64,000 nucleotides of DNA, from sequence record PZ296772.1. The stretch is one strand, 5' to 3'. The notes beneath the pieces are model-generated. The model had not been told where the DNA came from, searched no databases, and worked only from the letters and a program-made list of their open reading frames with translations. Source of the DNA: a phage. Shown here in pieces: positions 3,586 through 61,853 of the stretch (position 1 is its first letter; every line of letters starts with the position of its first letter). The position numbers were made by a program, and so were the translations under genes.

Positions 3586-3841
3586 AGTGTACGGGTATGA
3601 CTCTACTATTCATAAATGCATTTATTGTGATAATGCGAAACGATTGCTGACTGTTAAGAAACAGCCATTCGAATTCATTAATGTTATGCCAGAAAAAGGT
3701 GTGTTCGATGATGAGAAAATTGCTGAGCTTCTGGTTAAGCTTGGACGTGAATCACAAGTCGGATTGACTATGCCACAGATATTTGCTCCTGATGGAAGTC
3801 ATATTGGTGGATTTGACCAACTGCGAGAATATTTTAAATGA
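3578..3841 (+). CDS. nrdC: thioredoxin/glutaredoxin NrdC
   Basis: MFKVYGYDS...KCIYCDNAK CxxC motif; near-identical to T4 NrdC from memory; RBS aagga before ATG 3578. Confidence 0.9.
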   Translation: MFKVYGYDSTIHKCIYCDNAKRLLTVKKQPFEFINVMPEKGVFDDEKIAELLVKLGRESQVGLTMPQIFAPDGSHIGGFDQLREYFK

Positions 3842-4134
3842 GTATTGATTTAACTTTCCCGGGCTCTTATGACCAGGGTAAATTAGAAGCTTTGTTATAT
3901 CAAGAAATGTGTTCTCGTGCTAAGAACGATATCCAATATGCTATCGATAATCCATGGGGTGAATTTCGTATATTAATGGGTAATCGAATCATAGGTGTTC
4001 AATGGCGATTCGTTGGTCTTGAACCTGAAGACTACGAAGAAAACGAGCACGGTGACTGGATTCCTGTTGGTGAATATCACTGGGAATACGGTGGTCCTGA
4101 TTTCGAAGTTTCCTGTGCCTGGGTAGAACAATAA
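3838..4134 (+). CDS. hypothetical protein
   Basis: 98-aa ORF translationally coupled to nrdC. Confidence 0.5.
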   Translation: MSIDLTFPGSYDQGKLEALLYQEMCSRAKNDIQYAIDNPWGEFRILMGNRIIGVQWRFVGLEPEDYEENEHGDWIPVGEYHWEYGGPDFEVSCAWVEQ

Positions 4135-5228: not shown

Positions 5229-5253
5229 ACCCTTATCTATTTAAGGTAAGGGT
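5229..5253 (+). promoter_or_regulatory. stem-loop sequestering the gene 49 ribosome-binding site
   Basis: accctta / taagggt 7-bp inverted repeat ending 6 nt before ATG 5259; second arm contains the aaggg SD. Confidence 0.5.
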
Positions 5254-5258
5254 TTATC

Positions 5259-5732
5259 ATGTTATTATCAGGCGCAAAATATAAAGAAGAAAAACAAAAA
5301 TTTTATGATGCACAGAATGGTAAGTGTCCTATTTGCCACCGTGAATTAGACCCTGATGTTCAAGGTAACCATCTTGACCACGACCATGAATTAAACGGGC
5401 CAAAAGCTGGTAAGGTTCGTGGTTTACTATGTAACCTGTGCAATGCAGCAGAAGGTCAAATGAAGCATAAGTTCAACCGTTCTGGTCTTAAAGGTCAAAA
5501 CGTTGATTACCTCGAATGGCTTGAAGCTCTTCTTGCTTATTTGAAACAAGATTATTCTGATAATAATATCCATCCTAATTTTGTTCCAGACAAAACTAAA
5601 GAGTTCTCAAGACTAGGTAAAGAGGAAATGATGACTGAGATGCTTCAAAGAGGATTTGAATATAATGAATCTGATACTAAAACACAATTAATAGCTTCAT
5701 TCAAAAAGCAGCTTAGAAAGAGTTTAAAATGA
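5259..5732 (+). CDS. 49: endonuclease VII (Holliday junction resolvase)
   Basis: 157 aa; CPICH...CNLC zinc cluster and HLDHDH motif matching T4 gp49 from memory. Confidence 0.9.
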   Translation: MLLSGAKYKEEKQKFYDAQNGKCPICHRELDPDVQGNHLDHDHELNGPKAGKVRGLLCNLCNAAEGQMKHKFNRSGLKGQNVDYLEWLEALLAYLKQDYSDNNIHPNFVPDKTKEFSRLGKEEMMTEMLQRGFEYNESDTKTQLIASFKKQLRKSLK

Positions 5733-6271
5733 CGATTGAAAAAGAAATTGAAGGACTAATTCATAAAACTAATAAAGACCTTTTAAACGAGAATGCTAAT
5801 AAAGATTCTCGTGTTTTTCCAACTCAACGGGACCTTATGGCTGGTATTGTGTCTAAACACATTGCCAAAAATATGGTCCCGTCTTTTATTATGAAAGCGC
5901 ATGAAAGCGGAATTATCCATTTCCACGATATTGATTATTCCCCTGCTCTTCCATTTACTAATTGCTGTTTAGTAGATTTAAAAGGAATGCTTGAGAACGG
6001 ATTTAAGCTCGGTAATGCACAGATTGAAACTCCTAAATCAATCGGCGTTGCTACTGCAATTATGGCGCAAATTACTGCACAGGTTGCTTCCCACCAATAT
6101 GGCGGAACGACTTTTGCGAATGTAGATAAAGTACTTTCTCCTTATGTTAAACGCACCTATGCAAAACATATTGAGGATGCAGAAAAATGGCAAATCGCTG
6201 ATGCGTTGAATTATGCTCAATCTAAAACAGAAAAAGATGTATATGACGCGTTTCAGGCGTATGAGTTAATT
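5729..6271 (+). CDS. nrdD: anaerobic ribonucleotide reductase NrdD, exon 1 (3' boundary approximate)
   Basis: 181-aa N-terminal part; reading frame resumes about 1 kb downstream in another frame. Confidence 0.8.
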
Positions 6272-6477
6272 TAATTCAGGCTCATGTAAAACCGGTCTAA
6301 ACGGGGAACCTCTCTAGTAGACAATCCCGTGCTAAATGTTCTTTTGAACTAAATGCCTAACGACTAACCGTGATGAATGTAGCGGTGTAGAATAGAAGCT
6401 AATGCTATTCGAAACGGCCGGCATCGAAAGATGAAGATATAGTCTAATCTGCATGGCGACATGCAGCAGTCATCTTG

Positions 6478-6485
6478 TATAAATA
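6478..6485 (+). promoter_or_regulatory. T4-type late promoter TATAAATA inside intron
   Basis: exact tataaata 30 bp upstream of endonuclease ORF, preceded by ctgcat/atgcag hairpin. Confidence 0.55.
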
Positions 6486-6514
6486 AGATTATCTTATGAA
6501 TACGAGGTGAAACA

Positions 6515-7285
6515 ATGAAATGGATAAAAAGACGTTGTACTAAAATAAAAGATAAAGACGCATTTACATACTTAGTTAAGTTTTCTAATGGCGACATTTA
6601 TATCGGTTATAAAAAATTTAGAACAATTAAAAACAAGCCCACAAACTGGAAAACTTACACAACGTCATCTAAGTATATAAATGAACGCTTAAAAACTGAT
6701 ACACCTACTAAATGGATAATTTTAAAAACATTTGATAGTTATAAAGATGCATTAAAACATGAAGAAGAGGTCATACGTAAATATTTTTATAGCAAAAAAT
6801 GTTTAAATAAATCCATAGGCGGTAAAAAGTTTTATAAGCATCCGGATACTGAAGAACATATTCAAAAATTAAGAGATGCTCATAAGGGTAAAGTGTTATC
6901 CGAATCTCATAAAAACAATATAAAATCTTCTGTGGCTGAATATTATGCTAAAAACAGAAGATCTAAGGAACATGTGCAAAATAATATCAATAGTCGAAAA
7001 AGTAAAAAACAAGTATCGATAAAGCTTAAAAATAAAACTTTTAGAAGTTTTAAAAAAGCAGCGGAATATTTAAATTGCACTGAAAGTGAAGTCGAAACTC
7101 ATCCTCTTGTTTTGAGTATTAAGACTACTATTCATAAAGTTCCTGAATATGTGGTTGTTGACGGTATTAAGTATACGTCTTATATAGAAGCAGCTAAAGC
7201 GCTAAATTTTCATCCTAGCACTATAAAAGAACGTTGCATATCTATGGACTATCCAAATTTTGTTGTTTCATATAAACGGGCATGA
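6515..7285 (+). CDS. GIY-YIG homing endonuclease, I-TevII-like
   Basis: 256 aa; N-terminal FTYLVKF...DIYIGYKK GIY-YIG motif; lysine-rich DNA-binding C-terminus; lies wholly inside the intron. Confidence 0.8.
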   Translation: MKWIKRRCTKIKDKDAFTYLVKFSNGDIYIGYKKFRTIKNKPTNWKTYTTSSKYINERLKTDTPTKWIILKTFDSYKDALKHEEEVIRKYFYSKKCLNKSIGGKKFYKHPDTEEHIQKLRDAHKGKVLSESHKNNIKSSVAEYYAKNRRSKEHVQNNINSRKSKKQVSIKLKNKTFRSFKKAAEYLNCTESEVETHPLVLSIKTTIHKVPEYVVVDGIKYTSYIEAAKALNFHPSTIKERCISMDYPNFVVSYKRA

Positions 7286-7292
7286 ATTTGCG

Positions 7293-8591
7293 ACTCATGC
7301 TGAATATAATGATGAAGTAAATACACTTTTCAGCTCTAATGGTCAAACGCCTTTTGTAACAATTACATTTGGTACGGGAACTGACTGGACTGAACGAATG
7401 ATTCAGAAAGCAATTCTGAAAAATCGTATTAAAGGTCTTGGTCGTGATGGGATAACTCCTATTTTCCCTAAGCTTGTTATGTTCGTTGAAGAAGGTGTTA
7501 ATCTTTATAAAGATGATCCGAACTATGATATTAAGCAGCTTGCTTTAGAGTGTGCAAGCAAAAGGATGTATCCTGATATTATTTCAGCTAAGAACAATAA
7601 AGCTATCACTGGTTCATCTGTTCCTGTTTCTCCAATGGGTTGCCGTAGTTTCTTGAGCGTATGGAAAGATTCGACTGGTAATGAAATTCTTGATGGACGT
7701 AATAATCTTGGTGTTGTAACACTGAATCTTCCTCGCATCGCGTTAGATTCTTATATTGGAACACAGTTCAATGAACAGAAATTTATCGAATTGTTCAATG
7801 AACGAATGGATTTATGTTTTGAAGCTTTGATGTGTAGAATTAGTTCCTTAAAAGGAATTAAAGCTACTGTTGCTCCTATTCTTTACCAAGAAGGTGCATT
7901 CGGGGTTCGTCTTAAACCCGATGACGATATAATTGAGTTATTTAAAAACGGTAGAAGTTCAGTGTCTTTAGGATACATTGGTATTCACGAATTGAATATT
8001 CTTATCGGTCGTGATATTGGACAAGAAATTTTAACTAAAATGAATGCTCATCTTAAACAGTGGACTGAAAGAACTGGGTTTGCTTTTAGTTTGTATTCTA
8101 CTCCTGCTGAAAACCTTTGCTATCGCTTCTGTAAACTTGATACAGAAAAATATGGAAGTGTAAAGGATGTTACTGATAAAGGTTGGTACACTAACAGTTT
8201 CCATGTTTCAGTAGAAGAAAATGTTACTCCGTTTGAAAAGATTTCTCGTGAAGCGCCATATCATTTCATTGCGACAGGTGGTCACATTTCTTATGTTGAA
8301 CTTCCTGATATGAAAAATAACTTAAAAGGTCTTGAGGCTGTATGGGATTATGCCGCACAACATTTAGATTATTTTGGTGTTAATATGCCAGTAGATAAAT
8401 GTTTTACATGTGGAAGTACCCATGAAATGACTCCTACTGAAAACGGATTTGTTTGTTCTATTTGCGGAGAAACTGATCCTAAAAAGATGAATACCATAAG
8501 AAGAACATGTGGTTATTTGGGAAATCCGAACGAACGCGGATTTAATCTCGGTAAAAATAAAGAAATCATGCATAGGGTTAAACACCAATGA
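7293..8591 (+). CDS. nrdD: anaerobic ribonucleotide reductase NrdD, exon 2 (5' boundary approximate)
   Basis: C-terminal CxxC...CxxC zinc site and glycyl-radical motif RRTCGYLG. Confidence 0.85.
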   Translation, partial: THAEYNDEVNTLFSSNGQTPFVTITFGTGTDWTERMIQKAILKNRIKGLGRDGITPIFPKLVMFVEEGVNLYKDDPNYDIKQLALECASKRMYPDIISAKNNKAITGSSVPVSPMGCRSFLSVWKDSTGNEILDGRNNLGVVTLNLPRIALDSYIGTQFNEQKFIELFNERMDLCFEALMCRISSLKGIKATVAPILYQEGAFGVRLKPDDDIIELFKNGRSSVSLGYIGIHELNILIGRDIGQEILTKMNAHLKQWTERTGFAFSLYSTPAENLCYRFCKLDTEKYGSVKDVTDKGWYTNSFHVSVEENVTPFEKISREAPYHFIATGGHISYVELPDMKNNLKGLEAVWDYAAQHLDYFGVNMPVDKCFTCGSTHEMTPTENGFVCSICGETDPKKMNTIRRTCGYLGNPNERGFNLGKNKEIMHRVKHQ

Positions 8592-10022: not shown

Positions 10023-10164
10023 TCCTATTTCTAATATAATCCATTGGAATCTTCACTTCACTATCTCCTTGTGCCCCTCTCAAATCAAAAATATTTTTCA
10101 TAAAACAGTTTACATCCTCGATAGATGTGTTAAGATTAAACCAACTGCTATAGAGGAAAACAAA

Positions 10165-11235: not shown

Positions 11236-11274
11236 ATGTACAACGATAGGAAGACATGTTATTATCTTCCTATC
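11236..11274 (+). promoter_or_regulatory. early promoter with flanking stem-loop (PeSL-like cassette)
   Basis: tgtaca -35, tattat -10, bracketed by 10-bp inverted repeat gataggaaga / tcttcctatc. Confidence 0.6.
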
Positions 11275-11296
11275 GTCTTAAAATGAGGAAAATATC

Positions 11297-11536: not shown

Positions 11537-11601
11537 TATACAACTCTTGAGAGATGAGTATAATTCTCTAGTTGGATAATAAAATAACCGAGGAAAATAA
11601 T

Positions 11602-12431: not shown

Positions 12432-12475
12432 TGCTTTAAGATAGGTCTCTAAATATTATGATATAATAGACCTAT
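12432..12475 (+). promoter_or_regulatory. promoter region upstream of gene 55: MotA-box-like tgcttta plus -10 flanked by inverted repeat
   Basis: tgcttta at 12432-12438; tataat 12462-12467 bracketed by ataggtct / agacctat. Confidence 0.5.
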
Positions 12476-13798: not shown

Positions 13799-13972
13799 AT
13801 GACGAACATCCCGACTTCTGAAAATTTCGATAAAATCCGTAAAGGCAAAGCAGAAAGAATGAGACGTTTTAAAGAGTCTTATGATAAAGCTAAAGCCGAA
13901 GGAACTATTACGTACAAGCCCATTCGATTTAAAAGTTCAAATGAGCCTCTGTACGGTGTACTATGTGGATAG
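13799..13972 (+). CDS. hypothetical small protein (below ORF-track cutoff)
   Basis: 57-aa ORF MTNIPTSENFDKIRKGKAERMRRF...; ends at terminator hairpin. Confidence 0.35.
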   Translation: MTNIPTSENFDKIRKGKAERMRRFKESYDKAKAEGTITYKPIRFKSSNEPLYGVLCG

Positions 13973-13996
13973 GAACTCTTCGGAGTTCCTTTTTTG
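13971..13996 (+). terminator. rho-independent terminator
   Basis: aggaactc-ttcg-gagttcct hairpin plus tttttt. Confidence 0.7.
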
Positions 13997-17227: not shown

Positions 17228-17262
17228 CGCTTTAACACGATGTGGTTATAATGACCACATCA
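17228..17262 (+). promoter_or_regulatory. candidate middle promoter with -10 embedded in perfect inverted repeat
   Basis: cgcttta MotA-box-like, 12-bp gap, tataat; atgtggt / accacat arms flank the -10. Confidence 0.45.
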
Positions 17263-20601: not shown

Positions 20602-20606
20602 AGCAA

Positions 20607-20622
20607 TGGGACTTCGGTCCCA
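20607..20622 (+). promoter_or_regulatory. stem-loop between regA and gene 43, candidate gp43 translational operator or processing site
   Basis: tgggac-ttcg-gtccca hairpin; tataat at 20630 downstream; no U-tract. Confidence 0.45.
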
Positions 20623-20682
20623 TTTGGAGTATAATAAGTTCATCAACAAACAAAAGACAATAACTCGTCTAAAGGAAATTAA

Positions 20683-33042: not shown

Positions 33043-33049
33043 TAAAAAA

Positions 33050-33072
33050 GGAGACTTCGGTCTCCTTTCGGG
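33050..33072 (+). terminator. rho-independent terminator followed by early promoter
   Basis: ggagac-ttcg-gtctcc hairpin, tttcgggg; gtttaca at 33073. Confidence 0.7.
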
Positions 33073-33131
33073 GTTTACATCTTCCTCTAGGCATGATATG
33101 ATGAACTTACACCAACCAAGAGGAAAACATT

Positions 33132-33506
33132 ATGAATATGTCTCAAGCAATTTTTACTGCAATCACCGAAAACAAAACTGTTGAAGTAGTTTCTCCGCTG
33201 GCAACCTACGTTATTCTTGCTCCTAAAACTATTGTATCTCGTATGGAAAACACGGGCAAACGTATCGTACAAATAGTTGGAGCTGGAAATCAAAAACTTG
33301 ATTATCTACGAACCATCAAAGCTTATGAACATTTCCAACTCGAAAAAGGTTCTCCTATCCAGGTAGAACTCGTAAATGGTGATATCGTTCGAGCAATGTT
33401 CCATCATTTCTATGCATTGAATGACCCATCTAAAGCGGTTCGTTTAATTGCATACGACGCAAACCAAAACGAAATCAACGCAGATATATCTAAATTACAT
33501 TTTTAA
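33132..33506 (+). CDS. hypothetical protein
   Basis: 124 aa; gaggaaaacatt RBS. Confidence 0.5.
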   Translation: MNMSQAIFTAITENKTVEVVSPLATYVILAPKTIVSRMENTGKRIVQIVGAGNQKLDYLRTIKAYEHFQLEKGSPIQVELVNGDIVRAMFHHFYALNDPSKAVRLIAYDANQNEINADISKLHF

Positions 33507-33557
33507 GTTTACTTCTCCAGTAGTTGTGTTATTATAGACCCTATCAACTACTGGAGA
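33507..33557 (+). promoter_or_regulatory. early promoter with flanking stem-loop (PeSL-like cassette)
   Basis: gtttac -35, tattat -10, flanked by perfect 13-bp inverted repeat tctccagtagttg / caactactggaga. Confidence 0.65.
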
Positions 33558-33562
33558 ACAAA

Positions 33563-33880
33563 ATGAAAACCATCGATTGTAAAGCAGAATTTAAGATTTT
33601 TTATCACGGTTCAAGTAGTTCAGCTAACATCAAAAACATGCTTTGTCCTCCTGAAGAAACAGGAGTTCTGTCTGAAACAGGACGTAAGAAAAACTTGGAT
33701 CGTGTATTCTTTACTGAAGATATCGGTTTAGCAAAGATTTATGCAGGACGAGCAGCACGCTCTTATGGAGGTGAACCACGTCTCTATCGAGTAATTTCTC
33801 CGGTAGATGTAGTTCAAATGAATGATACTAAAGGCGCTACAGTTTATCACGCTGAATGGGCATTTTGCGAGGAAATATGA
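33563..33880 (+). CDS. hypothetical protein
   Basis: 105 aa from ATG 33563 with ggag RBS. Confidence 0.5.
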   Translation: MKTIDCKAEFKIFYHGSSSSANIKNMLCPPEETGVLSETGRKKNLDRVFFTEDIGLAKIYAGRAARSYGGEPRLYRVISPVDVVQMNDTKGATVYHAEWAFCEEI

Positions 33881-34068
33881 GCAAATTAACTAAAGTTACT
33901 TTTATTGGCTGGTTTAAAAGCGGTGAGATGTTCACTAAAGATATCATGTTATCAGGCGACCGTGAAGAAATCGAGTGGGTTGCGGTACAACTTGCTGAAG
34001 TGAACAACGCATTAGTTAAAGCATTTGTTAATGACGAGAAAGTTTTTGAAGCTGATTTCAGAGGATAA
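33877..34068 (+). CDS. hypothetical protein
   Basis: 63 aa; gagg RBS. Confidence 0.45.
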   Translation: MSKLTKVTFIGWFKSGEMFTKDIMLSGDREEIEWVAVQLAEVNNALVKAFVNDEKVFEADFRG

Positions 34069-34282
34069 TATGTATTCAACTGTGTTTAAACCATCAACAT
34101 ACGAATTTGCATCAACTACACAATGGAAAGCTCTTATTCTGGAAGGATGGGAACTAATGATGGACTGTGAAGCATCTGAAAAGTTTCCACACGGCAAAGT
34201 GGACTTCGTTAAATTTGCTGTACGTCCGACTAAACGACAGATTCGTCAAGAAAAACGCAAATTTCGCAAAAGTTTAAAATAA
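34069..34282 (+). CDS. small basic protein with VRPTKRQ C-terminal motif (paralogue of 4638-4808)
   Basis: 70 aa; C-terminus AVRPTKRQIRQEKRKFRK. Confidence 0.45.
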
Positions 34283-35021: not shown

Positions 35022-35084
35022 ACTTGTTTACATTATAGATGGACTATAGTATAGTAGTCCTATCAAATCAACTAAGGAGTTAAA

Positions 35085-36248: not shown

Positions 36249-36716
36249 ATGGGTATTATTAACACTGCAATAGATTCTGTTTACGCATATAAGTTTATTC
36301 GACTAATGCAAAAACCTTTTACCGAATGGAAAGCATACGAAGCCAAAATCATCGATGAACGTGGAAGTGTTCTTAAACGTCCTTCTACTCCCGAAGAGAA
36401 AGCAGCGTATACACCTTTTCATGCTTCAGTTCGTTCAATGAAGCGAATGATGAGCACTGTTCCGGGTCTTAATGGAATGGCCTCAATGATGTCTGCCTGG
36501 AGTGCTGTAGCTTCACGCTATAACATTACGGAAGAACAACAGAAAGAAATATTTAAAGAACTCCCTTTATTTGAGGATATGGTTGCTGGTGATTCAGGTG
36601 GCAGCCCTCAAGCTATTGCATCAGGAACAACTACAGGTGCAGTCGTAAATAAAGGTCCAGAACAAATTCCTTCCAAGAAAAGAAAGCGAATTAAAGTAAA
36701 TATTAATAAGTTGTGA
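36249..36716 (+). CDS. hypothetical protein
   Basis: 155 aa; aggagg RBS. Confidence 0.5.
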   Translation: MGIINTAIDSVYAYKFIRLMQKPFTEWKAYEAKIIDERGSVLKRPSTPEEKAAYTPFHASVRSMKRMMSTVPGLNGMASMMSAWSAVASRYNITEEQQKEIFKELPLFEDMVAGDSGGSPQAIASGTTTGAVVNKGPEQIPSKKRKRIKVNINKL

Positions 36717-36755
36717 TATGATGGCCTTATTAATTTAAGGCCTCTGGAGAATACT

Positions 36756-37778
36756 ATGGCTGAATGGATAGATAATGAATTTGCGTATCGTGCGTTTTCT
36801 CACCTACCTCGTTTTAGACAAATCAATAATTCAAGCACATTTAAATTAACATTTCGTTGTCCAGTTTGTGGCGACTCCCAGACAGATGCAATGAAAGCTC
36901 GTGGATGGTATTATGGCGGTACTCCTGGTAATGTACATTGCTATAATTGTCAATACCACAATACAATTTCCGGATACTTAAAAGAATATGACGAAGAGCT
37001 TTATCGCGAATATCTAATGGAAGTTCGTAAAGAAAAAGCTAGAATGGAACCAAAGATTGAAAAGGTTCCTGAAGCTAAGCCGGAGCCAGAGAAAAAGACT
37101 ATAAATTCTTTGCCGTCTTGTTCTCGTCTGGACAAGCTGCCTGAAGAGCATCCTATTGTGAAATATGTTAAGTCTCGATGCATTCCTAAAGAATCATGGA
37201 ACAGATTATGGTTCACATTAGAATGGCCTAAATTGGTCAACAAGATTCAACCTGGTACGTATAAGAAAGAGATTCCCGAACCACGTTTAGTGATTCCTAT
37301 TTTTAATAAAGACGGGAAGGCTGAGTCATTCCAAGGACGTGCACTTCGTAAAGATGCTCCTCAGAAATATATCACTATTAAAGCGTTTGAGTCTGCAACA
37401 AAAATTTATGGTGTTGAACGTGTTAAGGAAGGGGACGTCTGGGTAATGGAAGGCCCTATTGATAGTTTATTCATACCCAATGCAATCGCTATTACAGGCG
37501 GCTCAATAGATTTAGATGTGGTACCATTTAAAGAACGTCGGGTATGGGTAATGGATAATGAACCTAGGCATCCGGATACTATAGCTCGCATGAAGCGATT
37601 AGTTGATGCAGGCGAACGTGTCATGTTCTGGGACCGAGCTCCATGGAGATCAAAGGATGTGAATGATATGGTAATGAAAGAAAATGCAACACCACAAGAA
37701 ATTTTAGAATATATGAAACAGAATATTTCAAGTGGGTTGCATGCTAAAATGAGATTATCTCGTTATTCGAAGATTTAA
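36756..37778 (+). CDS. 61: DNA primase gp61
   Basis: zinc ribbon CPVCGDS...CYNC; Toprim region; matches T4 gp61 from memory. Confidence 0.92.
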   Translation: MAEWIDNEFAYRAFSHLPRFRQINNSSTFKLTFRCPVCGDSQTDAMKARGWYYGGTPGNVHCYNCQYHNTISGYLKEYDEELYREYLMEVRKEKARMEPKIEKVPEAKPEPEKKTINSLPSCSRLDKLPEEHPIVKYVKSRCIPKESWNRLWFTLEWPKLVNKIQPGTYKKEIPEPRLVIPIFNKDGKAESFQGRALRKDAPQKYITIKAFESATKIYGVERVKEGDVWVMEGPIDSLFIPNAIAITGGSIDLDVVPFKERRVWVMDNEPRHPDTIARMKRLVDAGERVMFWDRAPWRSKDVNDMVMKENATPQEILEYMKQNISSGLHAKMRLSRYSKI

Positions 37779-37972
37779 ACAAGCCCTATAATAGCAAAGG
37801 CCAAATCAACTACAGTATCCAATGGAACAGAAGGAACTATAATACCATGGGCAACTAACAATGGCGCAATCCCGAAGTTCCATGAAATAATGCCACCTAC
37901 AACTATTGCAGCGATAGCAGTTTTCTTTTTATTGCCTTTAATAGCGTTGATTAACGATGGAAGTTTAAACAT
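37775..37972 (-). CDS. small membrane protein encoded antisense to the early gene array
   Basis: 65 aa, two hydrophobic helices; perfect RBS aaggag 7 nt upstream on - strand; sits in the 61-56 gap. Confidence 0.5.
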   Translation of the reverse strand: MFKLPSLINAIKGNKKKTAIAAIVVGGIISWNFGIAPLLVAHGIIVPSVPLDTVVDLAFAIIGLV

Positions 37973-38582: not shown

Positions 38583-38588
38583 TTAAGT

Positions 38589-38596
38589 TATAAATA
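38589..38596 (+). promoter_or_regulatory. T4-type late promoter TATAAATA for soc
   Basis: exact tataaata about 32 bp upstream of soc ATG. Confidence 0.65.
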
Positions 38597-38627
38597 CACC
38601 TGTAATTAAACAACAAAGGAGTTAATT

Positions 38628-38864
38628 ATGGGTGGTTACGTTAATATCAAAACCTTTACGCATCCTGCCGGTGAAGGCAAAGAAGTTAAAGGTATGGAAG
38701 TTTCTGTACCGTTTGAGATTTATTCAAACGAACATCGGATTGCAGATTCTCATTACCAAATCTTTCCATCAGAAAAGGCAGCATATTCTACTGTAGTTTC
38801 TGATGCGGCTGATTGGAAAACTAAGAATGCCGCAATGTTTACCCCTACACCAGTAAGTGGTTAA
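38628..38864 (+). CDS. soc: small outer capsid protein Soc
   Basis: GYVNIKTF...HYQIFPSEKAAYSTV matches T4 Soc from memory. Confidence 0.88.
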   Translation: MGGYVNIKTFTHPAGEGKEVKGMEVSVPFEIYSNEHRIADSHYQIFPSEKAAYSTVVSDAADWKTKNAAMFTPTPVSG

Positions 38865-38873
38865 ATAATTTAA

Positions 38874-38898
38874 GGAATCCTTCGGGATTCCTTTTTTG
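38874..38898 (+). terminator. rho-independent terminator
   Basis: ggaatcc-ttcg-ggattcc hairpin plus ttttttg. Confidence 0.75.
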
Positions 38899-38963: not shown

Positions 38964-39192
38964 TATGTTAAATCGTTGGATTAAACCTAATAACACATTA
39001 GGTGCTTTGATTGCTCAAGAAGTTTCATTGAAATACGGCCTTGGATATTATGATGATGTAGTCGTACACTCGTTCATGATGGATGGTGAAAACGTCAAAT
39101 TTAATGCCGAAATCCGTTGGGATGACGGTGGTGTTCGTTTTGTTCGAGGAACAATTAATGCTTACGATGCTGAAGAAGTTGTTTGCTGTTAA
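38964..39192 (+). CDS. hypothetical protein
   Basis: 76 aa; gaggag RBS. Confidence 0.5.
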
Positions 39193-44906: not shown

Positions 44907-44936
44907 GTTTACAACCAAGGACGGTTGGAGTATAAT
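44907..44936 (+). promoter_or_regulatory. sigma70-type early promoter (conserved-spacer family)
   Basis: gtttaca, spacer ccaaggacggttgg, tataat. Confidence 0.6.
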
Positions 44937-44966
44937 CTTTCTATCTTAACCAAACGGGAAACAATT

Positions 44967-45461
44967 ATGAATATCAATACTACGTCTACTTACATCCTGA
45001 AAGACGAAAAACAAATCAACTGGTACGGTGCTTCAGTGCGAGCTTATGAAAAGTTTTGTGAAATTTTAGGTGCCACTCAAGGTAATAGTTTCACTATTGT
45101 TAACTTCATTAAACAAGTTGAAGGCCCTTGGTTATTCTTAGAAATTAAAAATTCATACGGTACAATTTCTACTACTGCCATCCCAAGCACCGACTTTGAA
45201 CTGTTGATTGAAGAAGCACCTGTTAAAGATGGTCTCCACTTTGATATGGATATCGTTTGTATGTACGGTACTCTGATTAAGCCTATTGAGCCTACTGATT
45301 TATTGTGTAAATATGTTTCAATTCGACGCCCATTCGATGGTCCAGTAAATGGATGGGTAACTGACCAGTGGATTGAAGATGGGGTTGAACTTCTGAACGT
45401 TGTTCATGCCGGTGATTTTAGTGTGGTTCCACGTAGTGCAGTAGTTAATATTCTAAATTAA
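44967..45461 (+). CDS. paralogous family protein 1 (conserved C-terminal DQWxEDG domain)
   Basis: 164 aa; C-terminus GWVTDQWIEDGVELLNVVHAGDFSVVP. Confidence 0.55.
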   Translation: MNINTTSTYILKDEKQINWYGASVRAYEKFCEILGATQGNSFTIVNFIKQVEGPWLFLEIKNSYGTISTTAIPSTDFELLIEEAPVKDGLHFDMDIVCMYGTLIKPIEPTDLLCKYVSIRRPFDGPVNGWVTDQWIEDGVELLNVVHAGDFSVVPRSAVVNILN

Positions 45462-45463
45462 TG

Positions 45464-45493
45464 TTGTACATCCAAGGATGGATGGAGTATAAT
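45464..45493 (+). promoter_or_regulatory. sigma70-type early promoter (conserved-spacer family)
   Basis: ttgtaca, spacer tccaaggatggatgg, tataat. Confidence 0.6.
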
Positions 45494-46411: not shown

Positions 46412-46460
46412 GTTTACTTCTCCTCCGGTTTTGATATTATAACCATATCAACCAGAGGAG
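46412..46460 (+). promoter_or_regulatory. early promoter with flanking imperfect stem-loop (PeSL-like)
   Basis: gtttac -35, tattat -10, arms tcctccggtt / aaccagagga. Confidence 0.55.
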
Positions 46461-46466
46461 AATAAT

Positions 46467-46991
46467 ATGTTAGTTTACCGCGTAGAACGTAGTTTTTGTA
46501 CTCAACGTGAATCATTACCAGGAATTGCTATCGAAGATGGTAAAGCCGTCAGAATTTGGGAAACCTCTTGGAATAAAGAACCTCGCTCACCATACGGTTG
46601 GTCAGGCACCGACAACTCTGAAGAAACATGGGAGTTCCTTGATAAACATGGAATACTCTCAGGTAACTTCTACCATCATGGCGACAACTATAATGTCCCT
46701 AATCGTCCTACAGTAAATGAAGACAAACTCCTTGAACAAAATATCTTAAGATACCATAGAATTGAGCACACATTTGAATTGAACGAAGATTGGGCTCAAG
46801 GGTTCTATTTTGGATTTGAAAGTGTTGACGCGGTTTATGCATGGTTTGATGACCAGGTGGATGTTGAACTCTTGAAAGCTAAAGGATACTACATCGCTGT
46901 CTATGAAGCACCCGATTTCATCCTCGGAAGTTGTCAATTAATGTTTAGACGTTCATTGGCAGAACAAGTTGATTTTATTTTGCTAAAATGA
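46467..46991 (+). CDS. hypothetical protein
   Basis: 174 aa; gaggag RBS. Confidence 0.5.
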   Translation: MLVYRVERSFCTQRESLPGIAIEDGKAVRIWETSWNKEPRSPYGWSGTDNSEETWEFLDKHGILSGNFYHHGDNYNVPNRPTVNEDKLLEQNILRYHRIEHTFELNEDWAQGFYFGFESVDAVYAWFDDQVDVELLKAKGYYIAVYEAPDFILGSCQLMFRRSLAEQVDFILLK

Positions 46992-47025
46992 TGTACAACA
47001 ACTATGGTCTATGATACTATAGACC
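46992..47025 (+). promoter_or_regulatory. early promoter with stem-loop (PeSL-like)
   Basis: tgtacaa -35; -10 gatact in loop of ggtctat / atagacc inverted repeat. Confidence 0.55.
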
Positions 47026-47870: not shown

Positions 47871-48296
47871 ATGGCTTTTAAAGGTTTTGAAGTTGGTAAG
47901 AAATATCGTATTATCAAAGGACAGGAAGATAATTTCTTGAGAATTCTTAATACGACTGGTAAACGTCTTAATACTAATCTGCATACTACTTTATTGACCA
48001 AAGATTTTATTGTGGAAGAGATGATTGGTTACGGCGTTTCGGTTATTGCCGTAGAAGCCGTAGGCGATTATGGGCGAACTATTCATAGTATGCAAGGTGA
48101 TATTCTGCTTTATGGTGCAGAATTTAAATTCTTTGAAGAAGTTCCGGAACCAGATACAGCTGTCGATTTCAAAAAAGGCTCTATAGAATTTGTTGATGGT
48201 TCGGTGATCGTATCAGGCGATGTGGTCATTACAGTTAAAAGTGAACAAGGGCGTTTGGCTGCAATTGATACACTTCAGAAAATTAAATTTAAATAA
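47871..48296 (+). CDS. hypothetical protein
   Basis: 141-aa ORF ending at a terminator. Confidence 0.5.
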   Translation: MAFKGFEVGKKYRIIKGQEDNFLRILNTTGKRLNTNLHTTLLTKDFIVEEMIGYGVSVIAVEAVGDYGRTIHSMQGDILLYGAEFKFFEEVPEPDTAVDFKKGSIEFVDGSVIVSGDVVITVKSEQGRLAAIDTLQKIKFK

Positions 48297-48297
48297 G

Positions 48298-48317
48298 GGC
48301 TTCGGCCCTTTTTGCTT
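48298..48317 (+). terminator. rho-independent terminator
   Basis: gggc-ttcg-gccc hairpin plus tttttg. Confidence 0.7.
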
Positions 48318-48337
48318 TAGATTTCGGATGATAGAAT
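48313..48337 (+). promoter_or_regulatory. MotA-dependent middle promoter for gene 39
   Basis: tttgcttta MotA box, 12-bp gap, tagaat; near-identical to the block upstream of gene 47. Confidence 0.6.
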
Positions 48338-48359
48338 ACCTTCATAACGAGGAGACAAC

Positions 48360-50177
48360 ATGATTAAAAATGAAATTAAGGTATTGTCAGATGTAGAACA
48401 TATTAAGAAACGTAGTGGTATGTATATTGGTTCTTCGGCCAAAGAAGCACATGAGCGTTTTTTGTTTGGTAAATATCAACAAGTTGAATATGTTCCTGGT
48501 CTGGTTAAATTAATCGATGAGATTATTGACAACTCGGTCGATGAAGCTATTCGTACATCATTTAAGTTTGCAAATAAAATTGATGTGCAAATTAAAAATA
48601 ATCAAGTTTCGGTGGAAGATAACGGACGTGGTATTCCTCAAGGTTTAGTTACAGACCAAACAGGTGAACAAATTCCTGGGCCTGTAGCAGCCTGGACTAT
48701 TCCAAAGGCCGGTGGTAACTTTGGTGATGACTCTGAACGCAAGACTGGTGGTATGAACGGTGTCGGGAGTAGTTTAACTAATATCTTCTCTACGTTGTTT
48801 ACAGGCATTACGTCAGATGGCGAAAATGAAATCACTGTTAACTGTTCAAACGGAATGGAAAACAAATCATGGTCTTCTAAGAAATCTAAAGGTAAAGGCA
48901 CTAAAGTAATCTTCACTCCTGATTTCTCTTCATTTGAAGAGCATAATTTATCTCAAATTTATTTAGATATTACTTTAGACCGACTTCAAACATTAGCAGT
49001 CGTTTATCCTGATATCAAGTTCACATTTAATGGTAAAAAGGTTGATGGTAATTTTAAACGATTTGCTAAACAATTTGGTGAAGATAACATCATTCAAGAA
49101 AATGATAAAGTCTCTATAGCATTCACAACATCACCAGATGGCTTCCGTCATTTAACTTATGTGAATAACATCCATACTAAAAATGGCGGACATCATGTTG
49201 AATGTGTAATGGATGATATCTGCGAACATCTTTTGCCGGGTATTAAAAAGAAATATAAAGGTATTGAAGTCACTAAAGCTCGTGTTAAAGAATGCCTCAC
49301 AATGTTGATGTTTATTAGAGACATGAGCAACGTGCGTTTTGATTCTCAGACTAAAGAACGTTTAACGTCGACGTATGGTGATATTCGTAATCATATCCAA
49401 TTAGATGCTAAGAAAATTGCTCAGGCACTTCTTAAAAACGAAGCCTTGATTATGCCTATTGTTGAAGCAGCATTAGCTCGTAAATTGGCGGCAGAAAAGG
49501 CTGCAGAAACTAAAGCAGCTAAAAAGGCAACTAAAGCTAAAGTTCATAAGCATATTAAAGCTAACCAATGTGGTAAAGATGCAGATACGACATTGTTCTT
49601 AACAGAAGGTGATTCGGCAATTGGTTATCTCATTGATGTTCGTGACCGTGAACTACACGGTGGATTCCCATTACGTGGTAAGGTGATGAATAGCTGGGGT
49701 ATGTCATATGCTGATATGATGAAGAACAAAGAGCTCTTTGATATCTGTGCTATCACAGGTCTTATTCTTGGTGAAAAGGCAGAGAATACGAACTATCGTA
49801 ATATTGCAATTATGACTGATGCCGATCATGACGGTCTTGGAAGTATTTATCCGGCTTTGCTTGCTTTCTTTAGTAATTGGCCTGAATTGTTTGAACAAGG
49901 ACGTATTCGCTTTGTTAAAACGCCTGTAATTATTGCACAAATTGGCAAAACTCAAAAATGGTTTTATACTGTAGCTGAGTATGAAGAAGTTAAAGATACA
50001 CTGCCTAAGCATAGTATTCGATACATCAAGGGATTAGGCTCCCTTGAAAAGTCAGAATATCGTGAAATGATTCAGAACCCAGTGTACGACGTAGTTAAAC
50101 TTCCTGAAAATTGGAAAGAACTATTTGAAATGCTCATGGGTGATGATTCAGAACTTCGTAAAGAATGGATGTCCTAA
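48360..50177 (+). CDS. 39: DNA topoisomerase II large subunit (gp39 fused with gp60-equivalent region)
   Basis: 605 aa continuous; GHKL ATPase motif EDNGRGIP and Toprim LTEGDSA. Confidence 0.9.
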   Translation: MIKNEIKVLSDVEHIKKRSGMYIGSSAKEAHERFLFGKYQQVEYVPGLVKLIDEIIDNSVDEAIRTSFKFANKIDVQIKNNQVSVEDNGRGIPQGLVTDQTGEQIPGPVAAWTIPKAGGNFGDDSERKTGGMNGVGSSLTNIFSTLFTGITSDGENEITVNCSNGMENKSWSSKKSKGKGTKVIFTPDFSSFEEHNLSQIYLDITLDRLQTLAVVYPDIKFTFNGKKVDGNFKRFAKQFGEDNIIQENDKVSIAFTTSPDGFRHLTYVNNIHTKNGGHHVECVMDDICEHLLPGIKKKYKGIEVTKARVKECLTMLMFIRDMSNVRFDSQTKERLTSTYGDIRNHIQLDAKKIAQALLKNEALIMPIVEAALARKLAAEKAAETKAAKKATKAKVHKHIKANQCGKDADTTLFLTEGDSAIGYLIDVRDRELHGGFPLRGKVMNSWGMSYADMMKNKELFDICAITGLILGEKAENTNYRNIAIMTDADHDGLGSIYPALLAFFSNWPELFEQGRIRFVKTPVIIAQIGKTQKWFYTVAEYEEVKDTLPKHSIRYIKGLGSLEKSEYREMIQNPVYDVVKLPENWKELFEMLMGDDSELRKEWMS

Positions 50178-50200
50178 GCTCCTTCGGGAGCTTCATTTTA
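50177..50200 (+). terminator. stem-loop / weak terminator
   Basis: agctcc-ttcg-ggagct hairpin then tcatttta. Confidence 0.5.
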
Positions 50201-54789: not shown

Positions 54790-54815
54790 GGGGACTTCGG
54801 TCCCCTTTTTTTCTT
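54790..54815 (+). terminator. rho-independent terminator
   Basis: ggggac-ttcg-gtcccc hairpin plus tttttttc. Confidence 0.75.
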
Positions 54816-55618: not shown

Positions 55619-55656
55619 TGTTTACAACTAAGTAGGACTATGTTATAGTAGTCCTA
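55619..55656 (+). promoter_or_regulatory. early promoter with stem-loop (PeSL-like)
   Basis: gtttaca -35; perfect 8-bp inverted repeat taggacta / tagtccta around the -10 region. Confidence 0.6.
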
Positions 55657-56131: not shown

Positions 56132-56168
56132 GTTTACAACACAGTAGGATTATGGTATAGTAGTCCTA
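56132..56168 (+). promoter_or_regulatory. early promoter with stem-loop (PeSL-like)
   Basis: gtttaca -35; taggatta / tagtccta arms (one mismatch). Confidence 0.55.
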
Positions 56169-56393: not shown

Positions 56394-56429
56394 TGTACAA
56401 ACTCTTGAGAGCAGAGTATAATGCTCTCA
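56394..56429 (+). promoter_or_regulatory. early promoter with stem-loop (PeSL-like)
   Basis: ttgtaca -35, tataat -10 bracketed by tgagagc / gctctca. Confidence 0.6.
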
Positions 56430-58582: not shown

Positions 58583-58658
58583 GTGCCCTAGCCTTAGGAT
58601 TTCTCGGTGCAATAGCTGCACTAGTGATTTGGCTGTATTGGTTGGACAATCATGATTA

Positions 58659-58680
58659 GGGAGCTTCGGCTCCCTTTTGT
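58659..58680 (+). terminator. rho-independent terminator
   Basis: gggagc-ttcg-gctccc hairpin plus ttttgtg. Confidence 0.7.
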
Positions 58681-58699
58681 GCATTTTTCTCACAAAACA

Positions 58700-58746
58700 G
58701 TTTACATGTGCTTCAAACATGATATTATAGACCTATCAAAACAAAA
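58700..58746 (+). promoter_or_regulatory. early/middle hybrid promoter (duplicated cassette, copy 1)
   Basis: gtttaca, tgcttca MotA-box-like, tattat, agacctatcaaaacaaa leader. Confidence 0.55.
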
Positions 58747-58767
58747 CAACCAAATTGGAGAAATAAA

Positions 58768-58983
58768 ATGTCTAAAATGAAATTAACCCAAAACACAACT
58801 ACTCGTTTCGGTAAAGTCAAACCTGGTATGAATGCTCTCCGTAAAGCACTTGTTGAAGAATTAAATTTCTTAGAAGTTGAAATCAATTCTTTAGTGGTTC
58901 GCGGTTCAAATGGTCATCATTTAGAAAAGCTTCGTTCTAAAAAGGCAAAACTTATTAGCCTTATTAAAGAAATGAGTTTGTAA
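58768..58983 (+). CDS. hypothetical basic protein
   Basis: 71 aa starting MSK; ttggagaaataaaATG leader shared with motA. Confidence 0.5.
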   Translation: MSKMKLTQNTTTRFGKVKPGMNALRKALVEELNFLEVEINSLVVRGSNGHHLEKLRSKKAKLISLIKEMSL

Positions 58984-59020
58984 ATTTTACCAGGGCTTTT
59001 GAAAAAGAGCCCAAAATAAA

Positions 59021-59066
59021 GTTTACTTTTGCTTCAAACATGATATTATAGACCTATCAAAACAAA
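59021..59066 (+). promoter_or_regulatory. early/middle hybrid promoter for motA (duplicated cassette, copy 2)
   Basis: gtttac, tttgcttca, tattat, agacctatcaaaacaaa; preceded by gggct/agccc hairpin. Confidence 0.55.
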
Positions 59067-59086
59067 TACTAATTTGGAGAAATAAA

Positions 59087-59719
59087 ATGTCTAAAGTTAC
59101 TTACATCATCAAAGCTTCTGAAAACGCTCTGAATGAAAAAACTGCTGCAATAATGGTTTATATCATTAAGAACAACTTCACCACTGCTGCCAATGTCCGT
59201 GAAGCTCTGGAAGCAGAATACAACGCATCAGTTGTTAACTCTAACATTGGTGTATTGATTAAGAAAGGTTTAGTCGAAAAATCCGGTGACGGACTTGTAG
59301 CAACAGGCGAAGCAATGGATATTATCCAAAAAGCTGCAGACCTCTTTGCCCAAGAAAATGCTCCAGAACTTCTTCAGAAACGTAACACTAGAAAAGCACG
59401 TGGAGTTACTCCTGAAATGCATGAATTAGCAAACTTTGTTTTTGAAAATATTAAAGATAAAGTTGAAGTTAAAGAAATTGGTGAAAACCGTAGTAACTTA
59501 GAAGTTCGATTCGCTAAACGAGTTCTAGGCATTCGCCAAATTGAAATTCGACGAGATGGCGCTCTTAGAATCTTTGCATACAACATGTCAGAAACTGAAT
59601 CAAAGCTGTTTACTTCTCTTGAAAATGATGTTAAGATTAAGATCGGTGGTAAATATACTTACATTGACTTCCCTAATGTGTCCAAAGAAATCATTACCCT
59701 TGTAACTAACGTACTGTGA
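59087..59719 (+). CDS. motA: middle transcription activator MotA
   Basis: MSKVTYIIKAS...NSNIGVLIKKGLVEKSGDGL matches T4 MotA from memory; 210 aa. Confidence 0.9.
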   Translation: MSKVTYIIKASENALNEKTAAIMVYIIKNNFTTAANVREALEAEYNASVVNSNIGVLIKKGLVEKSGDGLVATGEAMDIIQKAADLFAQENAPELLQKRNTRKARGVTPEMHELANFVFENIKDKVEVKEIGENRSNLEVRFAKRVLGIRQIEIRRDGALRIFAYNMSETESKLFTSLENDVKIKIGGKYTYIDFPNVSKEIITLVTNVL

Positions 59720-61383: not shown

Positions 61384-61534
61384 TCTTCAGAACGTAGTAG
61401 AGGCAGAACGTGAGCGTGAGGCTTTAGTCTATAATGAACTATTAGTTCAGTTCTTGGCTTTACACTCGTACGAACAGGAAGACTATATCAATTACGTTAA
61501 AAGCGTAGAAAAAGCCGTTTACAATCAACACTGA
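61373..61534 (+). CDS. hypothetical small protein
   Basis: 53 aa from ATG 61373 with aagga RBS. Confidence 0.4.
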   Translation: MSHNLQNVVEAEREREALVYNELLVQFLALHSYEQEDYINYVKSVEKAVYNQH

Positions 61535-61580
61535 TAATGGTACTATACTCCTATCAATTAAGTGGAATGAATAAAACGTT

Positions 61581-61853
61581 ATGAATAAAGACATTGAAAT
61601 CGTACGTGAAATTATTACTATTGCTTCTATTTTGATTAAATTCTCTAGGGAAGATATTGTTGAAGACCGAGCAAATTTCATCGGATTCTTGAATGAGATT
61701 GGAATTAAAAAAGATGGTCGGCAGCTAAATCAGAATTCGTTCAGAAAACTAATTACAAATTTAACTGCCGAAGAAAAGAAAACACTGATTAGTGAATTCA
61801 ATGAAGGTTTTGAAAATATTTATCGCCATTTGACGATGTATTCTAACAACTAA
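61581..61853 (+). CDS. asiA: anti-sigma70 factor AsiA
   Basis: VREIITIASILIKFSREDIVEDRANFIGFLNEIG...NQNSFRKL matches T4 AsiA from memory; 90 aa. Confidence 0.92.
   Translation: MNKDIEIVREIITIASILIKFSREDIVEDRANFIGFLNEIGIKKDGRQLNQNSFRKLITNLTAEEKKTLISEFNEGFENIYRHLTMYSNN

Follow-up and report, generated by a model that had tools for sequence, protein, structure and literature searches.

PeSL-type cassettes as probable immediate-early promoters with superimposed inverted repeats in an RB69-like Mosigvirus

The stretch analysed here, 64,000 nucleotides of phage sequence record PZ296772.1 (hereafter the window), is the early region of a Mosigvirus (RB69-like T-even phage) and aligns end to end with Mosigvirus genomes. 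Nucleotide identity is 99.4% to phage PTK over 30–38 kb and 96–99% to AlbertHofmann, JK45, ST0 and HX01. With gene names carried over from the AlbertHofmann and RB69 annotation, the + strand order begins with the nrdC/nrdD region, 55, 47, 46, 45, 44, 62, regA, 43, the arabinosyl-hmC genes, uvsX, 40 and 41, continues with dmd/imm/sp, 61, 56, soc, mrh, modB/modA, srd, dda, dexA, motB, cef and goF, and ends with 39, rIIA, rIIB, denB, ndd, ac, 52, motA and asiA, after which the holin and tail-fibre genes lie on the - strand. A search against Rfam at gathering thresholds gave zero matches in the window. A first-pass annotation of this DNA had drawn attention to early promoters whose -10 element is bracketed by an inverted repeat, among them the one at 33507–33557, and had likened them to promoter-early stem-loop (PeSL) cassettes. 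Here, we report that these sites are, with a probability of roughly three in four, PeSL-type composite cassettes that serve as ordinary immediate-early promoters of the phage and carry a superimposed inverted repeat.

The cassette at 33507–33565 on the + strand (P33508) consists of a -35 element GTTTAC (33507–33512), a -10 element TATTAT (33530–33535) and the motif CCTATCA (33540–33546), and the ATG at 33563 behind it opens a 105-aa open reading frame (ORF) with no Pfam match. Its arms, TTCTCCAGTAGTTG at 33513–33526 and CAACTACTGGAGAA at 33545–33558, pair perfectly over 14 bp, one more than first counted; the left arm is an anti-Shine-Dalgarno (anti-SD) sequence and the right arm holds the Shine-Dalgarno (SD) sequence GGAG. 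The RNA fold is predicted at -20.8 kcal/mol, with a z-score of -5.6. The same layout, with the left arm in the promoter spacer, the -10 element in the loop and the right arm downstream, is common to all eight sites that had been listed, and each set of coordinates was found to hold the structure described. RNA folds at these sites range from -9 to -21 kcal/mol, with z-scores of -4 to -6 against dinucleotide shuffles, except at 12441.

A generic sigma-70 scan proved unusable for the definition of the early promoters, with 54 found against 49 expected in 33–48 kb and real promoters not separable from background. A T4-specific pattern was therefore needed, and it yielded a set of 25 + strand early promoters. 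The consensus of this set runs from an A/T-rich upstream region through G-T-T/G-T-A-C-A and a spacer of 16–17 nt ending in TGn to TAtnAT and a..CCTAtCaaa, the -35 element taking the form GTTTAC or TGTACA and the discriminator/start motif 3' of the -10 element being conserved as AGNCCTATCA. A leader of about 20 nt is followed by the SD and ATG, the ATG lying 26–31 nt past the -10 element in 19 of 24 promoters for which an SD was detected. Strict matches to the promoter pattern number 30 in the window against 5.6 in shuffles. The sequence cctatca had been described as a motif that often follows the repeat. Of the 14 copies of TANNNTANNCCTATC in the window (3.95 expected), the 12 on the + strand all lie directly 3' of a -10 element. 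It is therefore part of the promoter and no separate module, being the discriminator/start region, which is itself the right arm in class I (see below). The motif agrees with the reported preference of RB69 early promoters for C at -3 to -1 (PMC1524935). The promoter upstream of asiA (61518–61583) also has the CCTATCA start motif, with no recognisable SD before the ATG at 61581.

A tally by position gave seven promoters in which the -10 element is bracketed (class I), five in which the spacer pairs with the SD (class II), four with a stem inside the spacer and five with none; several promoters have a hairpin or terminator upstream. The pairing was evaluated by permutation of spacers and downstream segments in place of column-wise covariation, since loop lengths and registers differ among the paralogues and an alignment would be structure-fitted. 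When each of the 25 spacers was paired with its own downstream 30 nt, the mean longest run was 5.76 as compared to 4.37 in cross-promoter pairs (permutation p<5e-5), and the duplex energy was -8.9 as compared to -6.2 kcal/mol. Runs of at least 7 bp were found in 7/25 early promoters (p=1e-4). Promoter-coupled perfect inverted repeats of at least 7 bp numbered six, while 40 whole-window dinucleotide shuffles held a mean of 0.125 and a maximum of 1.

These observations extend to a wider set of 107 non-redundant T4-like early promoters, drawn from an IMG/VR motif scan together with RB69, three other Mosigviruses and T4. The IMG/VR scan yielded mostly unrelated single matches, and the loci kept were from T4-like contigs of about 120–175 kb and from three shorter contigs with T4-type promoters. 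Own complementarity of at least 7 bp was found in 35/107 promoters and in 5% of cross pairs (p<5e-5). The right arm begins in one of two registers, either 1–2 nt inside the 3' end of the -10 element or 8–12 nt downstream of it, with 27/38 in class I and 10/38 in class II. Where an AGNCC discriminator occurs with a GGxCT spacer, x is complementary to N in 14/14 cases (A:T 7, C:G 5, T:A 2). The arms are unlike in sequence from site to site yet still complementary, and changes between orthologues are compensatory or of wobble type, as in the promoter at 11537, where a U.G pair becomes C-G in RB69, and in P46413, where AlbertHofmann has a wobble pair. These comparisons show the complementarity of the arms to be selected rather than accidental.

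Class II is represented in the window by the promoters at 33508, 46413, 10109, 33074 and 40389. The left arm is a pyrimidine anti-SD directly 3' of the -35 element, the right arms contain GGAG/GAGGA, the loops measure 18–19 nt and the stems end at the SD. Among the class II paralogues the bases flanking GGAG co-vary, as seen in CTCCTGTAG/CTACAGGAG, CTCCAGTAG/CTACTGGAG, CTCCATTAG/CTAATGGAG and CTCCTCATG/CATGAGGAG. The accessibility of the SD was modelled by partition-function folding of the read-through RNA and of the promoter's own transcript, whose start was placed by its spacing from the -10 element. The predicted unpaired fraction of the SD in read-through and own RNA, respectively, was 0.00 and 0.75 for the promoter at 33508, 0.00 and 0.65 for 46413, 0.17 and 0.81 for 10109, and 0.15 and 0.46 for 33074. 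Among the promoters with other stems, those at 840–868, 1860–1888, 44908–44936 and 45465–45493 have a near-identical spacer, (A/T)CCAAGGA(T/C)GG(T/A)TGGA(G/A), which forms a small hairpin between the -35 and -10 elements, and three of these four also show lower predicted SD accessibility in read-through RNA.

The own transcript would start about 7 nt after the -10 element, as judged from the -10 spacing, which places it at or beyond the class I right arm and always 3' of the left arm. Hairpin formation would therefore be confined to read-through RNA that originates at a promoter further upstream. For class II this would mean that the ribosome-binding site (RBS) is locked in a helix in read-through RNA and left free in the promoter's own transcript, so that translation of the gene would be tied to its own immediate-early promoter. 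For class I the hairpin would stand at the 3' end of the upstream cistron, where it would most likely be an attenuator, a pause site or a barrier for 3'-end stability, and would insulate adjacent transcription units from each other; efficient intrinsic termination at this hairpin is improbable. The class I role, which we infer from sequence, is the least certain step of the mechanism. A broader proposal, offered tentatively and considered rather doubtful, is that in a subset of T-even early promoters the spacer is a selected anti-SD that makes translation depend on the origin of the transcript, and that these promoters together with class I make up a general, undescribed 'transcript-of-origin' insulation layer across the early genes of the Tevenvirinae (Mosigvirus, JS98-like phages, T4 dexA). 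If true, such insulation might help to explain why immediate-early protein synthesis falls steeply after early-promoter shut-off.

The recombinational history of the cassettes was mapped by blastn against AlbertHofmann, NHEP36, LF82-4 and RB69 and by the sequences of the junctions. The largest direct-repeat families in the window (D1–D7) are promoter cassettes, and no cassettes are found in 12.5–33 kb or 47–55.6 kb, where the replication genes and rII are located. In NHEP36, 33137–33552 is absent, a segment comprising a 124-aa ORF and the cassette at 33507; the crossover lies in the SD–ATG part of two adjacent cassettes, with an overlap of 15 nt. Similarly, 44974–45466 with a motB paralogue is absent in NHEP36, and the crossover maps to the -35/spacer part of two cassettes with an overlap of 63 nt. 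These two, P44908 and P45465 (44908–45530, + strand), are near-identical members of family D3, here called family A, with the spacer (A/T)CCAAGGA(C/T)GG(T/A)TGGAG, and flank the motB-like ORF 44925–45461. The third deletion removes 58777–59011, with a 71-aa ORF, from both NHEP36 and RB69; the overlap is 85 nt and the crossover points are unlike in the two. On the + strand this locus (58658–59095) consists of a terminator, the promoter P58701, the ORF (58768–58983) and the promoter P59022, the two cassettes of about 85 nt being 91% identical over 55 nt (families D1 and D19). The gene 61.4 homologue and the promoter behind it, P34286 (34059–34330, + strand), are deleted in NHEP36 and replaced in LF82-4. 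There, 34059–34261 and the P34286 spacer are swapped for another ORF with a class I promoter, and the right crossover lies in TATCAACTA.

Modular shuffling, as proposed in the first-pass annotation, is supported by three deletions (NHEP36/RB69) and one replacement of a gene with its promoter (LF82-4), all with crossovers inside cassettes. ORF swapping between cassettes would follow from their being repeats of 40–100 bp in one orientation, in that homologous recombination between them would delete, insert or swap the flanked ORF and leave a working promoter and RBS behind. Seven of the eight cassette-flanked ORFs scanned had no Pfam match and the eighth is the motB paralogue. The genes behind most of the cassettes are conserved T4 early orthologues (imm, sp, modA/B, srd, motB, cef, ndd, motA, asiA) and not new ORFs, and delivery of promoters to newly acquired ORFs is not the only role of the cassettes. 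The indels seen lie at 41–61, dexA–motB and 52–motA. Of the two stretches that had been named as most plastic, 41–61 is among the sites of these indels, while rIIB–ndd is in one piece in 152/164 Mosigvirus records; the latter stretch is genus-specific and accessory between genera, and not plastic within the genus.

Other indels occur without cassettes, at a 22-nt gene-junction repeat (3854–4133), a late promoter (5223), the 56/soc junction (38583) and homing endonucleases (6265–7311 and 13993). The 22-nt direct repeat, ACTGCGAGAATATTTTAAATGA at 3833–3854 and 4113–4134, is a stop/start overlap junction with its SD and flanks the 98-aa ORF 3838–4134, which is absent from RB69, a cassette-like deletion without a promoter. 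The gene 56/soc junction (38583–38628) is a hot spot for insertion, with 348 bp in AlbertHofmann (two small ORFs) and 192 bp in RB69, and its right edge holds a late promoter, TATAAATA, and a hairpin TAATTAA/TTAATTA that contains the soc start codon. The 1047 bp at 6265–7311, absent from RB69, divide nrdD into ORFs 5729–6274 and 7260–8591 and harbour ORF 6515–7285, which encodes a GIY-YIG SegE-like/NUMOD1 homing endonuclease; no group I intron was found there by Rfam at gathering score. LF82-4 carries an HNH homing endonuclease gene at its positions 47912–48727, inserted upstream of gene 47 (about 13993 of the window) and absent from the window. The early region is otherwise all on the + strand, the exception being a lone 65-aa ORF on the - strand (37775–37972), a homologue of RB69ORF029w just past gene 61.

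Several observations weigh against the interpretation of the sites as cassettes with a functional repeat. A bracketing repeat is absent from about half of the early promoters (34286, 34716, 41026, 41767, 58701, 59022 and 61518), and promoter function does not depend on it. Neither of the two pairs that recombine, 44908/45465 and 58701/59022, has a -10-bracketing repeat; the junctions demand no more than homology between promoters, and it is this homology, not a part played by the hairpin, that they show. Paralogous descent inflates the covariation counts. Among the stem mismatches, sense-strand G.T predominates (about five independent events against one A.C), an excess that leans towards a role in the sense RNA without settling it, the events being too few. 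The stem at 10109 is mostly lost in RB69 and that at 35027 is broken in LF82-4. The start position in this phage is inferred from the -10 spacing. Finally, as there is no T-tract at the hairpins, the terminator role of one G/C-rich RB49 stem-loop is not simply transferable to them.

That last point bears on the original PeSL proposal, by which the hairpins would be ordinary Rho-independent terminators that overlap the next promoter and mainly stop upstream transcription. The stem-loop of RB49 PeSL211/210 cut lacZ expression as strongly as rrnB T1 (PMC2839356), RB49 3201 has a T-run after the stem, the hairpins sit between co-oriented genes, and the promoters with a UUCG terminator just upstream (33074, 38908 and 58701) are without the class I repeat. 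Class I stems, however, are followed by 0–3 T in 8 nt, typically ATCAAAAC, and no T-tract was found at any hairpin. A + strand terminator scan called none of them, yet detected the UUCG/T-run terminators, and neither the long class II loops nor the end of their stems at the SD fit a terminator. A primary role in termination is therefore regarded as unlikely. The real intrinsic terminators of the window are G+C-rich hairpins with a UUCG tetraloop, most with a T-run, at 13971–13990, 20605–20624, 33047–33068, 38872–38893, 50176–50193, about 54790–54805 and 58658–58675; three of these are directly upstream of the early promoters just named.

The inverted repeats could also act in DNA, either as the operator of a dimeric phage protein responsible for early-promoter shut-off or as a cruciform that aids or impedes promoter melting or recombination. 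An inverted repeat is strand-symmetric, this one is centred on the -10 element, where melting starts, and T4 early-promoter shut-off has no known mechanism (PMC3014915, PMC2988021). However, the arms are wholly unlike across sites (TAGGACTA, TGAGAGCA, GGTCTAT, ACGATAGGAAGA and TTCTCCAGTAGTTG) and show compensatory changes, and with loops of 6–19 nt and two registers a single sequence-specific protein is ruled out. Arms of 7–8 bp with loops of 6–12 nt are poor cruciform formers, which makes cruciforms unlikely. The bias of mismatches towards G.T on the sense strand and the targeting of the SD by class II pairing, meaningful only in RNA, point the same way, and an action in DNA is accordingly very improbable. 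Hardly credible is a lack of any function, with the repeats as by-products of templated (quasi-palindrome) mutation, for which T4 is the classical system, or of repeated recombination among promoter paralogues: many instances belong to paralogue families, so that counts are not independent, and half of the promoters work without a repeat, but Mosigvirus, JS98-like phages, T4 and RB49 have both registers in common despite unrelated arm sequences, the SD-flanking bases of class II co-vary, and the excess over cross-pair and shuffle controls is strong. Operator, cruciform and chance explanations were rejected on these grounds, namely the varied arms and registers, the poor cruciform geometry and the excess over controls, in favour of PeSL-type promoters with a selected repeat.

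Three further class II cassettes are described here, all on the + strand. P46413 (46412–46469) is a paralogue of P33508, with the left arm at 46418–46430, the -10 element at 46435–46440 and the right arm, which includes the SD, at 46450–46462. Its 13-bp stem has one C.A mismatch (-19.2 kcal/mol, z -6.1) and the ATG at 46467 is that of the motB.2 homologue; the mismatch is confined to this window, as four relatives carry T and hence a perfect stem. P10109 (10109–10167), not listed previously, has the anti-SD TCCTCGATAG at 10115–10124 opposite CTATAGAGGA at 10148–10157, with 9/10 paired. The cassette at 33047–33134 consists of the UUCG-tetraloop terminator at 33047–33068 followed by P33074, in which the spacer sequence TTCCTCT (33082–33088) faces the SD AGAGGAA (33119–33125); it forms the left boundary of the 33137–33552 deletion.

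Class I in the window comprises the + strand promoters at 11237, 35027, 46992, 55621, 56133 and 56394, with a weak member at 11537; the conserved discriminator/start motif AGNCCTAT serves as their right arm. P11237 (11237–11276) has a -35 element TGTACA and the -10 element TATTAT (11260–11265) in the loop; its arms, 11243–11254 and 11265–11276, measure 12 bp and not the 10 bp first given (-16.7 kcal/mol, z -5.9). Upstream of cef, P46992 (46992–47030) has 7-bp arms GGTCTAT/ATAGACC (47006–47012/47019–47025) and a -10 element TACTAT (47015–47020), followed by CCTATCA (-9.5 kcal/mol, z -4.1). P55621 (55621–55658) carries the 8-bp arms TAGGACTA/TAGTCCTA at 55633–55640/55649–55656 with the -10 element TATAGT at 55644–55649 (-13.2 kcal/mol, z -4.6), and its paralogue P56133 (56133–56171), upstream of ndd.1, carries 10-bp arms at 56144–56153/56160–56169 with one U.G pair (-10.9 kcal/mol, z -4.0). 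The LF82-4 version of P56133 has CCTACTG for CCTATCA, which extends the stem. P56394 (56394–56429), upstream of ndd, has the 8-bp arms TGAGAGCA/TGCTCTCA (56406–56413/56422–56429) and TATAAT at 56417–56422 (-13.9 kcal/mol, z -4.0). P35027 (35027–35065), upstream of sp, has the arms GGACTA/TAGTCC (-11.1 kcal/mol, z -3.5) and is another addition to the previous list, which is extended in all by the sites at 10109, 33074, 35027, 40389, 11537, 17239 and 36702.

The listed sites had all been taken for early promoters, which holds except for the one at 12441. This site, upstream of gene 55 (12432–12475, + strand), has 8-bp arms at 12441–12448/12468–12475 around an extended -10 element, TGaTATAAT (12462–12467), and is preceded by a MotA-box-like TGCTTTA (12432–12438), with 15 or 23 nt between it and the candidate -10 boxes. 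It has no -35 element and a fold z-score of only -2.4. Its sequence identifies it as a probable middle or extended -10 type, PmSL-like, and not as a canonical early promoter. With the criterion of a MotA box (a/t)(a/t)TGCTT(t/c)A, 11–13 nt and then a -10 element, the spacing at 17228–17252 fits: upstream of 45.2/rpbA/45 (17228–17261, + strand), a PmSL-like middle promoter has the MotA box CGCTTTA, 12 nt, and TATAAT (17247–17252) in the loop of GATGTGGT/ACCACATC (-13.3 kcal/mol, z -4.6). At 36702–36734, upstream of gene 61, a 9-bp A/T-rich repeat ATTAATAAG/CTTATTAAT surrounds TGaTATGAT, with no recognisable -35 element.

The window may be compared with several known systems. Bacterial promoter-coupled terminators (Fletcher et al. 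2026 preprint, 10.64898/2026.08.19.745784) take their -35 element from the hairpin DNA and use the T-tract as spacer, with the -10 element immediately behind it; their 3' end is about 10 bp upstream of the start. They resemble the cassettes in that a single intergenic stretch between tandem genes encodes the RNA hairpin of the upstream unit as well as the promoter of the downstream one. In the window, however, the spacer holds the left arm, the -10 element is bracketed by the hairpin and there is no T-tract, which places the cassettes outside this class.

The T4 genes e, soc, 49 and I-TevI have RBS-sequestering hairpins with an internal promoter (reviewed in PMC3014915). Class II is predicted to share with these an SD helix in upstream transcripts, a promoter inside the hairpin and an own transcript without the 5' arm. 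The internal promoters of the T4 genes are late (gp55, TATAAATA) and delay translation to late infection, whereas those of class II are early sigma-70 promoters and would, according to the folding model, restrict translation to immediate-early transcripts. The class II elements thus work like the T4 RBS-sequestering family yet are not members of it, because their internal promoters are of the early -35/-10 type. An apparent counterpart of the T4 gene 49 hairpin, judged by position and form, is present in the window at 5229–5253, where the hairpin ACCCTTA/TAAGGGT immediately precedes the gene 49 (endo VII) ATG and a late-promoter-like AATAAATA is found just upstream; RB69 has an extra ORF inserted at this point.

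The early promoters predicted for RB69 (Nolan et al. 2006, PMC1524935) are the same promoters as those in the window, with a GTTTAC -35 element, an A-rich UP region and a C at -3 to -1 that corresponds to the CC of AGNCCTA. Many of those predicted were upstream of novel ORFs (PMC1524935), and a term search of the main text of that study finds no 'inverted repeat', 'hairpin' or 'palindrom'. In T4 the geometry recurs, the promoters of dmd and motB carrying class I repeats and that of dexA a class II repeat; the motB promoter has the same frame as P56394 with GGGACCA/TGGTCCC. A search of the literature library used here found no T4 start-site or termination maps for the dmd, motB and dexA promoters.

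In RB49 and phi1, where they were defined, PeSLs combine an AT-rich region and a sigma-70 promoter with a stem-loop and end in the SD and ATG (Arbiol et al. 2010, PMC2839356). The stem-loop occupies one of five positions, most commonly between the -35 and -10 elements or overlapping the -10 element, and PeSLs are reported to be enriched in hyperplastic regions and to mediate indels and mini-circles (PMC2839356). T4/PST and KVP40/nt-1 were added later, with the suggestion that probably all T4-like phages have them (Comeau et al. 2014, PMC4122927); the parts consulted do not cover the RB69 group or Mosigvirus, and a term search of PMC2839356 likewise finds no mention of RB69. Bringing the RB69 group, to which a large number of coliphages belong, under the PeSL concept adds statistical and comparative support beyond the original descriptions in the form of own-versus-cross complementarity, covariation and base-level deletion junctions. 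It would also sharpen the mechanism, in that the hairpins are not canonical terminators, would be present only in read-through RNA and in one subclass would conceal the RBS. A practical use in annotation and phage engineering is that the cassettes mark clean points of gene loss or swapping and small ORFs with their own immediate-early promoter. The window cassettes differ from the published PeSLs in the -35 element (GTTTAC/TGTACA as opposed to TTGACA), in stems of mixed A/T–G/C composition without a T-tract as opposed to polyG/polyC, in a start region AGNCCTATCA that doubles as the right arm, and in a distinct subclass that pairs the spacer with the SD. The part order is nonetheless the same, from the AT-rich upstream region through the sigma-70-like -35/TGn/-10 and the stem-loop to the SD and ATG, and the same script recovers the -10-bracketing geometry in RB49 itself, with ATGGGAGTA/TACTCCCAT at 39130 and further instances at 36985, 42355 and 3201. 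Given this order of parts, a stem-loop overlapping the -10 element, clusters in accessory regions, dispersed repeats and indel and replacement junctions between close relatives, the cassettes of the window belong to the PeSL kind already described, as the first-pass annotation had proposed.

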